From NCBI RefSeq assembly GCF_030684315.1, contig NC_081384.1:26760818-26824817 (forward strand): a stretch of 64,000 nt of DNA, in the 5' to 3' direction. This document shows, piece after piece, positions 19,127 to 61,024 of this stretch. Numbering within the stretch: position 1 is the first letter of the stretch; each line of letters opens with the position of its first letter. Position numbers and translations under genes: made by a program. The notes below the pieces were generated by a model. That model had not been told where the DNA came from. It did no database searches and worked only from the letters and a program-made list of their open reading frames with translations. The DNA comes from Stegostoma tigrinum (taxonomy: Eukaryota).

Positions 19127-21670
19127 TCACTCACCATAACCCTTAATTCCTTTACTGTTCAAAAATGCATCTAGCCTTGCCTTAAAAACATTCAGTGAGG
19201 TGGCTTCAACCACTTCACTGGGCAGGGAATTCCACAGATTCACAATCCTTTGGGTGAGGAAGTTCTTCCTGACCTCAGTCCTACATCCGCTTCTCCTTAT
19301 TTTGAGGCAAATCACTCCAGTCCTAGTTTCACCTGCTAGTGGAAATGACCTCCCTGCTTCCACTTTATCTATTCCCTTCATAATCTTATATGTTTCTATA
19401 AGATATCTCCTCATTCTTCTGAATTCCAAAGAGTAAAAGCCCAGTCTACTCAGTCTCTCCTCATAATCCAACACTCTCAACTCTGGAATCAACCGAGTGA
19501 ATCTCCTCTGCACCCCCTCCAGTGCTAGTACATCTCGTCTCAAGTAAGGAGACCAAAACTGCACACAATACTCCAGGTGTGGCCTCAGCAGGACCCTATA
19601 CAGCTGCAGCATAGCCTCCCTGTTTTTAAACTCCATCCCTCGAGCAATGGCAGACAAGATTCCATTTGCCTTTTTAATCACCTGCTGCACCTGCAGACCT
19701 ACTTTTAGCGATTCATGCACAAGGACACGCAAGTCCCTCTGCACAGCAGCATGCTGCAGTTTTTTTATCATTCAAAACATAGTCCATTTTGCTGTTATTC
19801 CTACTAAAATGGATAACCTCACACTTATCAACATTGTACTCCATCTGCCAGACCTTTGCCCACTCACTTAGACTATCTATATCCCTCTGCAGACTTTTAG
19901 TGTCTTGTGCACACTTTGCTCTACCACTCACGTGAGTGTCATCTGCAAATTTTGACACACCACATTCAGAACCCAACTCCAAATCATCTGTGTAAATTGT
20001 GAACAATTGAGGTCCCAACACTGATCCCTGAGGCACAACGCTAGCCACTGACCACCAAGCAGAAAAACACCCATTTACCCCTACTCTTTGCTTTCTACTG
20101 GTCAACCAATCCTCTATCCATACTAATACATTACCTGTAATACTGTGCAACTTTATCTTATGTAGCAGCCTTTGGTGTGGCACCTTGTCAAATGCTTTCT
20201 GGAAATCCAGATACACCACATCCATAGGTTCCCCATTGTCCACCATGCAAGTTATGTCCTCAAAGAATTCCACCAAGTTAATTAATGACCTACCCTCATA
20301 AACCCATGCTGGGTGTTCCCAATGGGACAATTTATATCCAGATGTCTTGCTATTTCTTCCTTTCCCATCACCTCTTTTAGTACCTTGGGATACATTTTAT
20401 CAGGGCAAGGAGACTTGCCTACCTTTAGCCCCATTAGCTTGCCCAGCACTGTCTCCCTAGTAATAATGATAGTTTCTCGGTCCTCACCTGCTATAACCTT
20501 CTTGCCATCAGTTTTCATCATGTTATTTGTGTCTCCACTGTGAAGGCTGACATGAAGCAACTGTTTACTGTCTCAGCTATTTCCTCATTCCCAGTTAATA
20601 AATTGGTCTTCTCAACCTCTAAAGGACCAATGTTTACTTTCGCCACTCTTTTATAATTTACATATTTATAGAAACTTTTGCTGCCTGTTTTTATATTCTG
20701 AGCTAGTTTACTCTGATAATCTGTCTTACTTCTCTTTATCACTTTTTTGTGGCTTTCTGTTGGCCTTTAAAGATTTCCCAGGCTACTAGTTTCCCACTAT
20801 TCTTTGCTTTTTTGTCTGATGCTTTCCTTTATTTCCTTAGACATCCATGGCTGGCTCTCTCTTTTCCTACAGTTCTTCCTTATCACTGGAATATACTTCT
20901 GCTGAGCACTGTGAAAAAGTGTTTTGAAAGTCCTCCACTGTTCCTCAATTGACTCACCATAAAGTTTTTGCTCCCATTCTACCTTAGCTAACTCCTTCCT
21001 CATTCCTTCATAGTCTCCATTGTTTAAGCACAGGACAGAGGTACTGGATTTAACCTTCTCACGCTCTGTCTGTATTTTAAATTCGACCATACTGAGATCG
21101 CTCCTTCCGAGAGGATCCCTAACTCTGAGATCATTAATTAATCCTGTCTCCTTACACAGGACTAGGTTCCATTACATATTGTTCAAGGAAATTATTATGG
21201 ATGCATTCTATGAACTCCTCCTCAAAGCTGCCATGACTGACCTGGTTTGACCAATCGATATGTTGATTAAAATCCCCCATGATAAATGCTGTACCATTTT
21301 TACAGGTATTTGCTATTTCTGTGTTTATTGCCTGCCTCACCACAATGTCGTTATTTGGTGGCCTATAGACCACACTTATCAGAGACTTCTTCTCCCTGCT
21401 TTTCCTAATTTCCAACCAAATGGATTCAATGAACCTACATCATCTCTCACTATCATCCTTAAAAATCAGAGCAACACCACCTCCCTTACCTTCCTGTCTG
21501 TCCTTCCGAACAGTTTGTTACCCCTGGATGCTTAATTCCCAGCATGACCATCCTGTAAACATGTCTCTGTAATAGCCACTAAATCTTTCCCATTTGCTAT
21601 GATTTGCACCATCAACTCCCCCACCTTGTTTCGAATGCTCCGAGCATTCAGATAAAGTGCCCTTATGCCA
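19127..21670 (-). pseudogene. CR1 ORF2 (APE endonuclease + reverse transcriptase), frameshifted and partly deleted
   Basis: ORF pieces 19127-19771, 19713-20330, 20282-20560, 20518-20742, 20797-21090 and 21152-21415. Confidence 0.9.
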
Positions 21671-22041
21671 GTTTTTGCTCCTTCTTTTTGGGTCCCATTA
21701 CCTCCCTTACTAACAACTCTTGAGCTCTCCTTCCCTTTAACTTTTTTCTTAATTTTTAATGGAGTTGAAGCTTCCTCGTCACCTGCTAACCTGCTGCTTT
21801 GCCTTACATTAATTGTTATTCTCCCTCTACGTTCACTTCTTCCTTCCCCCCTACTTACTAGTTAAAAGTCCTATTAACCACCCTATTTACCCTTTTCGCC
21901 AGAACACTGAACCTGGCCCTGTTCAGGTGGAGTCCATCGCAGAGGTATAGGTCCCTGCCAGAACTGGTGCCAGTGCCCCATGAAAAGGAAACCCTCTTTC
22001 CCACACCACTCTTTTAGCCACATGTTTACTTCCCTGATTCT

Positions 22042-22277
22042 GGATGTGCTCGCTGAGCTGGAAGGTTAGTTTTCAGATGTTTCGTCACCATTCTAGGTAA
22101 CATCATCAGTGAGCCTCCGACGAAGCACTGGTGTTATGTCCTGCTTTCTATTTCGTTGGAGGCTCACTGATGATGTTACCTAGAATGGTGACGAAACGTC
22201 TGAAAACTAACCTTCCAGCTCAGCGAGCAAACTCACATCCAGAACCTCAACCTGAGCTACAAACCTTCTCAAAACTC
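22042..22277 (+). mobile_element. Short fold-back PLE-like insertion, family B, with 14-bp TSD
   Basis: Arms ~22038-22124 and 22152-22244. TSD ACTTCCCTGATTCT at 22028-22041 and 22278-22291. Confidence 0.9.
22158..22216 (+). ncRNA. Type I hammerhead ribozyme motif (minimal stem III)
   Basis: CTGATGA (22167-73), extra T, stem II GTTACC/GGTGAC, then GAAAC-GTC (predicted cleavage after C22200). Stem I is TCA/TGA plus a distal GGAGG/CCTTCC pairing. Confidence 0.75.
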
Positions 22278-23984
22278 ACTTCCCTGATTCTCGCCTCCTA
22301 ATGCCAATTTGCACATGGCTCAGGCAGCAATCCTGAGATTATGACCCTTGAAGACCTGTTTTTTAATTTTGTTCCTAGCTTTTCATAATCCTGAAAGAGG
22401 TCTTTTTTCCTAGTCCTGCCTATGTCGTTGGTCTCTATGTGGACCACAACAACTGGATCCTCCCCCCTCCCCCAGTCTAGTATCCTCTCAAGCTGGTCCG
22501 AGATATCTCGCACCCTGGCACCGGGCAGGCAACACACCATGAGGGACTCTGTATCCTGCTCACAAAGGATACTGTCTATGCCCTGATGATGGAATCCCCT
22601 ACAACTGCAATCTGTCTTTTTGCTCCCCCCTCTTGAATGGCCACCTAGATCATGGTGCCATGGTCATTTGACTCATCCTTCCTGGAGCCCTGTTCCTCAT
22701 CCATGCAGGGAGCAAGTTCCTCATACCTGTGGGACAATGTCAAGGGCTGCAGCGCCTGTGTTTCTGTCTGCAGCGCCTGTCTACCTGCCTCACTCACAGT
22801 CACACACTGCTATTCCTGGCCACTCATCGAAATAACATTAGTTAATCTACCAGTTGTGACTGATTCCTGAAACATTGTATCCAGGTATTTCTCCCCCTCC
22901 CGGATGTGACAAAGTTTTTGGAGTTCGGATTCCAGCTCATTAATTCTGAGCCGGACCTCCTCAAGCAGCCGACACTTGCTGCAGATGTGGTCATTACCGT
23001 TCTCAATGGGTTCAGCGAGCTCCCACGTCATACAGCTACAACACATCACCTGGCCTGCCATCTCTACTTAGTTATTTGAAATGAATTAGTTTTTTTTAGT
23101 TTCTCAGTGTTCGCTGCACCAGTAAGTTTGCTCCGTTATATACTCTAACAGACTCTGGCTTTGCCTTCCATCCCCCTCCCAGAGGATTTGGCGTCTGTGT
23201 GACCACACTGAAAGATAAAGAGATAAGGAAAAAAAATGCAAATAGCTTACCTGCTCACCACACTTAGTCGTTATTATTAGGTTAGAGGAGGTGGAAGGGT
23301 GGGAGACCCACTGTGTACTGTCTCGGGTATTACTTTACTCCCAAATTTATTGGTGGAAGCTTACGTTGCCAGGCTGCCCTCACACTTCCTCCCGGCCTCC
23401 CGCCACCGAAACAACTAAAAGCCGTTGAGGTGAATAACAGATAGAATGGAGGATACGATGGATACGTGAGGGAGCAAAGCATTGTGAGAAGCTGTTATGG
23501 GGCATAAATACTGATATGGCCCGATTGGCTTTAAATTGGTGGGTTTTGGATCTAGCCATTCTAAGTTCACAATTCTTTATTGGCATGTTTCTGTAAGCTC
23601 AGCAGAAATGCTCTGATCAACTGCTGAACCATGCTGCAGCCCCTTCTGGGATCACAGTCTCCCTCTTCGCTGCCCCAACATTTCACTGTCTCTCTGTAGT
23701 TACTGGCCAATTCCTCCATGCTATCAGCTCAAGGATTTATTCACTTCACTCCAGTTCTCCTACACTAGCTTCAGCAGGGCAAGTGCAGTTACTGTTTTGA
23801 AGTCAAGAGATAAAAAAAGACAATTCAGTCTCCATTCTGTTCCATGCTTCCTGAGAGAATGGTCCCATGAAATATCCCATCTCCTTGCCTTACAGTCACC
23901 CACTGCTTGCAAAGTGGCCTTTCTGTGCATCAGATCTTTTCTTTCTCACCTACAGCTGTACTATATCACACTAGTGTACTAGAA

Positions 23985-25221: not shown

Positions 25222-25253
25222 CTGACGTTTCGGGCCTAGACCCTTCATCAGAG
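25222..25253 (-). ncRNA. Minimal hammerhead ribozyme motif in pLTR
   Basis: Reverse complement reads CT-CTGATGA-A-GGGTCTAGGCCC-GAAAC-GTC-AG. Confidence 0.7.
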
Positions 25254-25475
25254 AGGGGGATGGGGGGAGGGAACTGGAATAAATAGGGAGAGAGGGGGAG
25301 GCGGACCGAAGATGGAGAGTAAAGAAGATAGGTGGAGAAGGTGTGGGTGGGGAGGTAGGGAGGGGATAGGTCAGTCCAGGGAAGACGGACAGGTCAAGGA
25401 GGTGGGATGAGGTTAGTAGGTAGCTGGGGGTGCGGCTTGGGGTGGGAGGAAGGGATGGGTGAGAGGAAGAACCGG

Positions 25476-26425
25476 TTAGGGAGGCAGAGACAGGTTGGAC
25501 TGGTTTTGGGATGCAGTGGGTGGGGGGGAAGAGCTGGGCTGGTTGTGTGGTGCAGTGGGGGGAGGGGATGAACTGGGCTGGTTTAGGGATGCAGTGGGGG
25601 AAGGGGAGATTTTGAAACTGGTGAAGTCCACATTGATACCATATGGCTGCAGGGTTCCCAGGCGGAATATGAGTTGCTGTTCCTGCAACCTTCGGGTGGC
25701 ATCATTGTGGCAGTGCAGGAGGCCCATGATGGACATGTCATCAAGAGAATGGGAGGGGGAGTGGAAATGGTTTGCGACTGGGAGGTGCAGTTGTTTGTTG
25801 CGAACTGAGCGGAGGTGTTCTGCAAAGCGGTCCCCAAGCCTCCGCTTGGTTTCCCCAATGTAGAGAAAGCCGCACCGGGTACAGTGGATGCAGTATACCA
25901 CATTGGCAGATGTGCAGGTGAACCTCTGCTTAATGTGGAATGTCATCTTGGGGCCTGGGATGGGGGTGAGGGAGGAGGTGTGGGGACAAGTGTAGCATTT
26001 CCTGCGGTTGCAGGGGAAGGTGCCGGGTGTGGTGGGGTTGGAGGGCAGTGTGGAGCGAACAAGGGAGTCACGGAGAGAGTGGTCTCTCCGGAAAGCGGAC
26101 AGGGGTGGGGATGGAAAAATGTCTTGGGTGGTGGGGTCGGATTGTAAATGGCGGAAGTGTCGGAGGATAATGCGTTGTATCCGGAGGTTGGTAGGGTGGT
26201 GTGTGAGAACGAGGGGGATCCTCTTGGGGCGGTTGTGGCGGGGGCGGGGTGTGAGGGATGTGTCGCGGGAAATGCGGGAGACGCGGTCAAGGGCGTTCTC
26301 AATCACCGTGGGGGGGAAGTTGCGGTCCTTAAAGAACTTGGACATCTGGGATGTGCGGGAGTGGAATGTCTTATCGTGGGAGCAGATGCGGCGGAGGCGG
26401 AGGAATTGGGAATAGGGGATGGAAT
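25476..26425 (-). CDS. PLE polyprotein C-terminus: RT thumb + GIY-YIG endonuclease (5'-truncated, no native start)
   Basis: SIPYSQFLRLRRICS, CNRRKCYTC, NVVYCIHCTRCGFLYIGETKRRLGDRFAEH, EQQLIFRLGTLQPYGIN; no internal stop. Confidence 0.9.
25500..25612. repeat. 39-bp tandem repeat x3 at the end of the PLE ORF
   Basis: CTGGTT...TGCAGTGGG...GCTGGG units encoding PSSSPPPTAxxNQ. Confidence 0.85.
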
Positions 26426-26729
26426 CACTGCACCACACAACCAGCCCAGCTCTTCCCCCCCACCCACTGCATCCCAAAACCAGTCCAACCTGTCTCTGCC
26501 TCCCTAACCGGTTCTTCCTCTCACCCATCCCTTCCTCCCACCCCAAGCCGCACCCCCAGCTACCTACTAACCTCATCCCACCTCCTTGACCTGTCCGTCT
26601 TCCCTGGACTGACCTATCCCCTCCCTACCTCCCCACCCACACCTTCTCCACCTATCTTCTTTACTCTCCATCTTCGGTCCGCCTCCCCCTCTCTCCCTAT
26701 TTATTCCAGTTCCCTCCCCCCATCCCCCT

Positions 26730-26761
26730 CTCTGATGAAGGGTCTAGGCCCGAAACGTCAG
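26730..26761 (+). ncRNA. Minimal hammerhead ribozyme motif in inverted pLTR
   Basis: CTGATGA (26732-38), A, GGGTCTAGGCCC, GAAACGTC (predicted cleavage after C26759); stem I is only 2 bp. Confidence 0.7.
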
Positions 26762-33767: not shown

Positions 33768-34865
33768 TCATAGATCTTTACATTGCAGAGAGAGATGATT
33801 TGGCCCATGAGGTTCATTCAGGTCAAGAAAGGTCTGACTAAACTAAGACAATAAGGTGTGGAGCTGGATGAACACAGCAGGCCAAGCAGCATTGGAGGAG
33901 CAGGAAAGCTGATGTTTCAGGCCGAGACCCTTCTTTTAAGAACGGTCTAGGCCTGAAATGTCAGCTTTCCTGCTCCTCTGATGCTGCTTGGCCTGCTGGT
34001 TTCATCCAGCACTACACCTTGCTTTCTCAGATTCTCCAGCATCTGCAGTTCCTACTATCTCTGACTAAACTAATCCTATTTTCCAGCTTCTGGCTCATAG
34101 CTATGGATGTTATGTTAATGCGTTGAATATCTGAATACTGCTTAAATGTTATAAAAGTTTCTGACTCAACCGCCCTTTTGGGAAGTGAGTTCCGGACTCC
34201 CACCATCCTCTAAGTGAAAGAATTTCCCTCTTAGCCTGCTAAATTTCAAATCTATGTCCCCAACTTATTGTCCCCTCTACTATTAGAAAAGGTGCCTTCC
34301 TATCTATCTTAACTATGCTTTTCATAATCTTCTACATCTCTATCAGGTCCCCTCTGAACTTTCTTGCTCCAAGAAAAACATTAGCCTATTCAGTCTCTCC
34401 TCTTAGTTTAGATCCTCCAGCCCAGGCAACACTGTTCACTGTATGCTCTCTAGTCCAAACACATCCTTCCTATAATTTGGTGACCCCAACTATATGAAGT
34501 GTTCTAATCGTGGCTTCACCAGCATTTAAACAATTCCAGTGTAACCTCTCAAATTTCATGTCTCGGCTAGTAAAGGAAAGTATTCCATTAGCCTTCTTCA
34601 CTACCTCATCAACCTGCCCTGCTACCTTCAGGCATCAGTGGATGTGCATACCACTCTTGGATTCTATTTGACGCTGTTCTGCCTACCTGACCAATTCTCC
34701 TTGCATTGATAGCTATCCTGCTCACTATGCATCACCCAACCAATTTTTGTGTCATCCACAAACCTTGTGATCATACTCCCTACATTTAAGCCCAAATCAT
34801 TAATGTACACCACAAACAGCAAGGGCCAGAGCATAGAACTCTGTAGAACCCCATTGAAAATAGTT
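33768..34865 (-). mobile_element. CR1 RT/3' fragment
   Basis: GVLQSSMLWPLLFVVYINDL...FVDDTKI; 3' tail at ~33770. Confidence 0.8.
33847..34059 (+). mobile_element. Fold-back pLTR-only element, family A, with 14-bp TSD
   Basis: TSD TCTGACTAAACTAA at 33833-33846 and 34060-34073; two inverted pLTR ends joined near 33935. Confidence 0.9.
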
Positions 34866-37255: not shown

Positions 37256-37493
37256 AGATAGTAGGAACTGCCGATGCTGGGGAATCTGAGATAACAAGGT
37301 GTAGAGCTGGATGAACACAGCAGGCCAAGCAGCATCAGAGGAGCAGGAAGGCTGACGTTTTGGGCCTAGGCCCTTCCCCTTCCCCTACCCCTCCCCCATT
37401 TCTGAAGAAGGGTCTAGACCCAAAACGTCAGCATTCCTGCTCCTCTGATGCTGCTTGGCCTGCTGTGTTCATCCAGCTCTATACCTTGTTATG
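37256..37493 (-). mobile_element. Fold-back pLTR-only element, family A, with 15-bp TSD
   Basis: ACAGCATAACAACAG (37241-55) and ACAACATAACAACAG (37494-508). Inverted arms; core CTGAAGA...AAAACGTC at ~37402-37429. Confidence 0.9.
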
Positions 37494-60925: not shown

Positions 60926-61024
60926 AAGATAATAAAATGTAAGGCTGGATGAACACAGCAGGCCAAGCAGCATCTCAGGAGCACAAAAACTGTCGTTTCG
61001 GGCCTAGACCCTTCATCAGAGAGG
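60926..61024 (-). mobile_element. Single pLTR fragment, young family A subtype
   Basis: Nearly identical to 25158-25256. Confidence 0.85.

Follow-up and report, generated by a model that had tools for sequence, protein, structure and literature searches.

A one-off insertion probably formed from two 5'-truncated pLTR copies of a Penelope-like element in Stegostoma tigrinum

The 236-bp insertion studied here occupies positions 22042–22277 of the window, which is the whole 64,000-nucleotide stretch of Stegostoma tigrinum contig NC_081384.1 (positions 26,760,818–26,824,817) that was analysed. It is almost certainly a stub of a Penelope-like element (PLE). Its two arms were probably derived from two 5'-truncated copies of the element's pLTR, separately reverse-transcribed from the two nicked strands of the target and placed head to head. 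It is a single, one-off truncated and dead-end copy, and not the replicating MITE-like unit of the original prediction. The locus belongs to an already known class whose layout is in print and, being ordinary, matters little alone; its value lies in the end statistics of its family.

Layout of the insertion and its hammerhead motifs

Positions in the family are counted from the predicted hammerhead cut, with nucleotide C17 (window 22200) as 0 and 22201 as +1. The insert lies, as originally predicted, between two exact 14-bp direct repeats on the plus strand (22028–22041 and 22278–22291), and the last four bases of the left copy also match the end of the adjoining arm (microhomology). This repeat is a true target duplication, since another copy of the host repeat (L077) represents the empty target and has the 14-bp sequence once, and since contigs from two DNA-type runs omit exactly 250 bases here, with 14 letters that fit either side. 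Within the insert, loose ends of the run contigs fall at 22241 and at 22277. The insertion lies in a degenerate LINE (19130–22663, minus strand), which we take to be of the CR1 type, with pieces of a reverse transcriptase (RT)/endonuclease-like ORF2 (RVT_1, E = 1.2e-20 at 19716–20396) and an esterase-like ORF1. The insertion interrupts this ORF1, and an ORF1-like frame resumes across it.

The two arms meet head to head at 22152–22153 with a microhomology of 2 nt, a junction that was found once in the genome searches. The left, tail-less short arm (22042–22153, minus strand) is an inverted 5'-truncated pLTR copy running from -77 to +40, and the right arm (22152–22277, plus strand) is a 5'-truncated copy running from -48 to +77, which starts 2 nt from a pile-up of 5' ends at -50 (see below). 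Only the latter carries the tail of ~37 nt (22241–22277, plus strand), which lies between the two fixed 3' ends of the family. The inverted arms, predicted to be ~87 bp long, are 91% complementary over 91 nt in an ungapped comparison; a gapped alignment reveals a 6-nt deletion and three CpG transitions in the short arm. Relative to the family majority, every substitution in both arms is a CpG transition, save a lineage allele at +64, and the arm substitutions are thus neutral decay. ADAR-type A>G scars are absent from the 236-bp insertion. Because the arms differ from each other only at CpG sites and by the 6-nt deletion, this locus by itself cannot reveal two templates. The insertion had been described as non-coding; its tail arm, however, holds the first 35 codons (22173–22277, plus strand) of the parent RT/GIY-YIG ORF, with an ATG that adjoins helix II of the hammerhead.

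On the plus strand, 22167–22200 form the undamaged core (C3 to C17) of a minimal type I hammerhead, with a GUC triplet and a predicted cut between 22200 and 22201. It possesses every feature listed for minimal hammerheads (min-HHRs) in PMC4209133. The conserved core is accompanied by a 6-bp helix II with an extra U after A9 and a G10.1–C11.1 pair, by a palindromic 15.2–16.2 and by a helix I in which about 22155–22166 is paired with 22201–22219 (three proximal and at most eight distal pairs on the two sides of an internal loop). The folding z-score of this 76-nt unit is -2.10, and seven of 200 shuffles fold equally well. A well-formed hammerhead had been claimed for both strands, which holds for the plus strand and fails for the minus strand. 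The mirror core (22076–22109, minus strand) does have the AUC triplet that was noticed at its cleavage site, which derives from a G>A change at a CpG, but this change also breaks the 15.2–16.2 palindrome of stem III, and the mirror therefore lacks the self-complementary stem needed for a dimer (computed self-duplex energy of +2.8 kcal/mol, versus -3.1 kcal/mol for the plus strand). A scan of the whole window against Rfam, the check suggested together with the original prediction, returned no hammerhead family at E <= 1 and only sub-threshold matches to miRNA hairpins, as would be expected for a hammerhead motif without helix III. The match to mir-627 (43.7 bits; gathering threshold 86) was discarded because it reflects the hairpin only.

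A transcript of the whole insertion is predicted to form one long hairpin of ~85 bp, relative to which the hammerhead fold would cost 68.5 kcal/mol (plus strand) or 65.1 kcal/mol (minus strand); in the isolated unit or in the parent context the predicted cost is ~5 kcal/mol. In either direction of transcription the sequence places the complementary arm first, so kinetics should not rescue the hammerhead fold. According to these models, the fold-back unit probably does not self-cleave, both of its ribozymes being locked in the hairpin, and the ribozyme of the parent element probably does. Long perfect hairpins of this kind could feed small-RNA silencing of the family.

The parent family and the census of its copies

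The 36-nt core has 6,765 exact copies in the 3.2-Gb genome (control, 0), and upstream of it copies lead into a GIY-YIG-like and RT-coding frame. The domain tests were made on such relatives, the insertion itself holding the first 35 codons only. In L119 an RT ORF (a 551-residue open stretch; RVT_1, E = 7e-11, above the cut-off) leads into the same hammerhead. GIY-YIG matches in L119 (weak, E = 0.04) and in L034 and L090 (E = 0.001–0.002) fall below the curated cut-off. The hammerhead motif is located 3' of the ORF at most RT-bearing loci, and 5' of it in L195 and L199, where the pLTR, with the frame of the 35 codons, continues into the ORF; across loci, a pLTR with the hammerhead and the ORF start is present at both ends of the ORF. 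The arms are thus composed of the pLTR and ORF start of an RT/GIY-YIG element, in agreement with the Penelope derivation originally proposed. The P0001 linker has, by eye, no Cys motif (a feature taken from the available part of PMC8557442), and a PDB search with the parent protein gave 0 matches. Classified by domain order and linker alone, the parent is a putative EN+ Penelope/Poseidon-type element. The family may already be listed in the supplements of PMC4209133, PMC11167929 and bioRxiv 10.64898/2026.07.22.740005. At window position 22204, contigs from several runs that match the hammerhead core diverge downstream, which suggests that a sister family has this core as well.

A second Penelope family is present in the window at 25228–26755, where a GIY-YIG-like frame (25476–26621, minus strand) is flanked by minimal hammerheads on opposite strands (25251–25228, minus; 26732–26755, plus). 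A core related to these hammerheads occurs at 61019–60996 (minus strand). The original prediction kept this family apart from the insertion, and rightly so: DNA similarity between the two is not significant (best match 19 nt, E = 0.57), and the endonucleases of the two families are 39% identical over 69 residues. Two further long hairpins, at 33882–33991 and 37330–37453, have sub-threshold miRNA matches in Rfam and are probably fold-backs of this other family.

The census was based on the first 100 exact-core matches on contig C1, taken in position order and merged to 83 loci; each locus was required to have one intact core, and 26 of the 83 had flanks of only 1.5 kb. Six duplicate loci (L023, L029, L044, L047, L049 and L055) were left out, L035 was omitted from the pair statistics, and the 28 top matches of a similarity search, which are skewed to the shape of the query, were excluded from population counts. 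The 83 loci contain 54 inverted pairs that span 192–2,492 bp and form a size continuum up to RT-bearing copies. Eleven of them, about 13% of the sampled loci, are fold-backs of no more than 300 bp, and by rough extrapolation from 11/83 loci and 6,765 cores the genome probably contains several hundred of these.

The junctions are largely copy-specific, the pattern that the original prediction had itself set against its reading of this locus. Among the 54 pairs on C1, 51 distinct junctions were counted. A gapped pattern of the insertion's junction had 53 matches, of which one was the junction itself, and a DNA search spanning the junction (40 of 997 candidates scored) likewise returned it a single time. 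The 30 best tail matches comprise the locus itself and 29 others, 25 being identical over 77 nt, and share an allele found in five of 123 panel tail arms; none of the 29 relatives (0/29) has the junction. We therefore regard the insertion as a one-off truncated copy. No set with many copies, one length and one internal junction, by which a replicating unit would be recognized, was found. Where junctions do recur (groups A, B and C), the long and short arms are swapped in polarity (A and C) or two lineages are involved (B), and such junctions seem to have arisen independently at microhomologies. A different case is the pair L085 and L089 (G000:C1:19.85 Mb and 20.50 Mb), fold-backs of 444–446 bp with the same junction and polarity that are 98% alike and have different target-site duplications (TSDs) and flanks 650 kb apart. 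Here an entire fold-back unit may have been copied again, or conversion may have occurred; as the founder of a family this junction was rejected, with no third copy among 40 of 128 candidates scored. A perfect-palindrome junction was likewise dismissed as a separate mini-family, with only two loci matched.

Formation of the paired arms

The 3' ends of the arms are confined to two sites. Of 139 ends, 71 lie at +33 to +53, 66 at +73 to +82 and two elsewhere, giving two fixed ends at about +42 and +80, ~37 nt apart and one per arm; run contigs diverge from the reference at the same two arm-end positions. The 54 pairs comprise 47 with a long and a short end, five with two short ends, two with a long and a shorter end and none with two long ends. 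Their junctions show an overlap of at least 1 nt in 30 cases, are blunt in five and contain short inserts in 11 and gaps of more than 30 in eight. TSD lengths peak at 12–14 bp (27 of 54 pairs; mode 12–13 bp); the automatic search scored a TSD of at least 10 bp in only 31 of the 54 and one under 10 bp in 23. A single tail arm is present in 49 pairs; in 20 of these the short arm extends further in the 5' direction, in 16 the tail arm does so and in 13 the two are equal. Neither arm contains the other in the first 20, a configuration also seen in the insertion studied here (-77 to +40 versus -48 to +77), and hairpin copying of one arm from the other is impossible in such pairs.

This absence of nesting favours priming from both sides over a simple fold-back, and two-sided priming is the explanation that we hold to be likely, although less firmly than the identity of the insertion as a PLE stub. 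In such a mechanism the endonuclease would cut both target strands about 14 nt apart, and of the two 3' ends, one would prime at about +80 (the distal RT start) and the other at about +42 (the proximal one). At the present locus synthesis of the first cDNA would have ended by run-off close to the 5' end of the RNA, at about -50, that of the second would have stopped at -77, and the two products would have been joined via the 2-nt microhomology. As a rule the templates would be a single RNA or a single source lineage, with two different RNAs used in the minority of cases. The hammerheads would simply have been carried along by virtue of their location in the pLTR.

The strongest competitor, which we nevertheless consider unlikely, is a single cDNA that folded back and primed itself, or self-priming of the RNA as proposed for the Penelopes of Adineta, to yield the inverted arm. 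Besides requiring the nested arms that are missing at this locus and in 20 of 49 pairs, it has to contend with outer ends that both fall at two fixed sites adjoining the TSD. In its favour, some junctions are perfect palindromes (L043, L103, L144 and L145), and palindromic junctions have been read as self-priming in the available text of PMC3846280. The arms of a pair also share lineage alleles beyond chance: 506 differences separate them where 692 would be expected of random copies, and they have 125 shared derived letters versus 31. This likeness fits one RNA or one active source and also fits fold-back or conversion between arms. However, in 71 TSD-flanked long/short pairs from all collected loci, the paired arms are discordant at nine of 90 lineage-diagnostic non-CpG sites, versus no more than 2.1 expected from one template (P = 2e-4), a number that is in turn far below the 29.9 expected for independent templates. 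The test was made without 28 CpG-prone sites, one of which is +8. Lying between the two expectations, the discordance indicates that a single RNA or source probably gave rise to both arms in most pairs and two RNAs did so in a minority, and ectopic gene conversion could explain the discordant sites. A 9-nt block at -153 to -145, at first taken as eight linked lineage markers, was dropped from the test because it is one hairpin micro-inversion. This micro-inversion, located between 4-nt inverted repeats (e.g. in L069, L084, L087 and L096), is present in about one-sixth of the covering arms, sometimes in only one arm of a pair.

The 5' ends are likewise not uniformly distributed. The interval from -107 to -5 contains 45 arm starts, and nine of them are at -51 to -49 (P = 5e-6 versus uniform), immediately before helix I; solo copies, which lack an inverted partner (L067, L104 and L147), also start at -50. 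This pile-up may represent the RNA 5' end. A second pile-up at -117 was not used, as the reference lacks a 21-nt repeat and this may have produced part of the signal. The distribution bears on the possibility that the insertion was once a longer inverted PLE copy whose central part was subsequently removed by a microhomology-mediated deletion. Instability is a property of long inverted repeats, and the 2-nt microhomology and the overlap at 30 of 54 C1 junctions would suit such a deletion. Microhomology-mediated deletions have also disabled Penelope copies in Adineta (PMC3846280, in the part available). Against a deleted centre stand the solo copies that begin at the same -50 site, the nine of 45 arms that start at -51 to -49 and the tail arm of the present insertion, which starts at -48, and we judge it improbable. 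Lowest of all stands the non-autonomous self-cleaving MITE-like unit of the original prediction, transcribed, cut by its hammerhead and re-inserted whole by a PLE in trans, which the share of short fold-backs (11/83), the few recurrent junctions with the unexplained L085/L089 pair and the trans mobilization of other sequences by PLE proteins (PMC3846280, in the part available) would allow, but which the solitary junction, its absence from the nearest tail relatives, the continuous sizes, a hairpin predicted to bury both ribozymes and the damaged mirror core render very improbable.

Some copies may also carry traces of the predicted cut. Of 30 copies in the ORF-start sample, 11 with a foreign leader at -28 were set aside and L208 was the query, leaving 18, of which three start at the cut (P of about 0.001 versus uniform over 173 nt, for a small sample and a crude null). 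Both arms of L233 start at +1, and L215 starts at 0 or +1; both arms of L237 start at +1 by eye, BLAST having given +3 owing to a mismatch at +2. These starts suggest that the ribozyme of the parent cleaves in vivo. In L237 both +1 starts are preceded by the same foreign sequence, with a palindrome of about 135 nt, and this foreign sequence was apparently already part of the template RNA, attached precisely at the position of the cut. The foreign-leader group (L199, L209–L213, L218, L219, L224–L226, L232, L146 and L161) has its junction at -28. The leader takes the place of the hammerhead's 5' half and abuts the ATG of the ORF directly; its end, a pyrimidine run followed by AG, resembles a splice acceptor. 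About 3.4 kb of these copies is common, at 94%, to the C13 and C58 loci, with unrelated flanks, and the group may represent either a mobile unit of composite origin or a chimera that was amplified after losing the ribozyme.

Taken as a fossil record, the copies of this family would preserve priming on two strands at two RT starts, sometimes from two RNAs, with cDNA run-off at genuine RNA 5' ends, at about -50 and at the hammerhead cut (+1), a broader reading for and against which we see about equal chances. If it is true, minimal hammerheads cleave in the germ line, the structure of inverted pLTR and tail is accounted for and the present insertion becomes a clean example that simple fold-back cannot make.

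Comparison with known systems

The original prediction regarded the insertion as an undescribed system, yet its architecture is in print (PMC8557442, PMC3846280 and PMC4209133; this and the following comparisons refer to the available parts of the sources). An inverted 5'-truncated copy with a one-sided tail of 30–40 bp is the typical PLE layout (Craig et al., 2021, Fig. 2 legend; PMC8557442), and the same inverted-pLTR layout has been described for Pen2a_Av of Adineta (PMC3846280) and Penelope of D. virilis (PMC2377424). The present family resembles these EN+ PLEs in the inverted truncated copy, the tail at one end, the TSD and a pLTR that includes the ORF start. It differs in that both halves are trimmed to the pLTR only here and that TSDs peak at 12–14 bp, compared with 8–10 bp for the PLE insertions of Adineta (PMC3846280), and its thousands of copies permit end statistics.

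In 2014, Cervera and De la Pena (PMC4209133) already described dual min-HHRs that lie on opposite strands with 100–700 bp between them. The motif described here shares with the metazoan PLE min-HHRs of that report the core, the long helix II, the extra nucleotide after position 9, the G10.1–C11.1 pair and the palindromic 15.2–16.2. It differs in belonging to another sequence family, in a mirror copy without the palindrome and in a helix I of three proximal pairs, an internal loop and at most eight distal pairs. Non-LTR retrozymes (bioRxiv 10.64898/2026.07.22.740005) are similarly non-coding and PLE-related and have a type I hammerhead, but consist of head-to-tail tandem units with a hammerhead in each; with its head-to-head pair, copy-specific junction and no tandem unit, the insertion was rejected as a retrozyme.

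No title or abstract among those searched, with subscription literature mostly outside the scope, describes two-sided priming or cut-site footprints for PLEs. The closest biochemical counterpart is PAc, the Poseidon protein of the anole Anolis carolinensis, which cuts and extends both strands in vitro and begins reverse transcription at two sites bounding the tail (Frangieh et al., 2024; PMC11167929). The available text of that article does not tie the two-strand extension to an inverted arm. The ORF of PAc likewise starts at helix II, with the cut 26 nt past the start codon (28 nt here), and its distal end lies 111–118 nt into the ORF (104–109 nt here). For PAc, RNA-seq ends at the cut were not found and cleavage was dispensable in vitro (PMC11167929), whereas some genomic copies of the present family start at the cut. 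The family thus offers test material for two questions, namely how PLEs form their inverted-repeat and tail ends (raised in PMC8557442) and whether minimal hammerheads cut in vivo (raised in PMC4209133 and PMC11167929).
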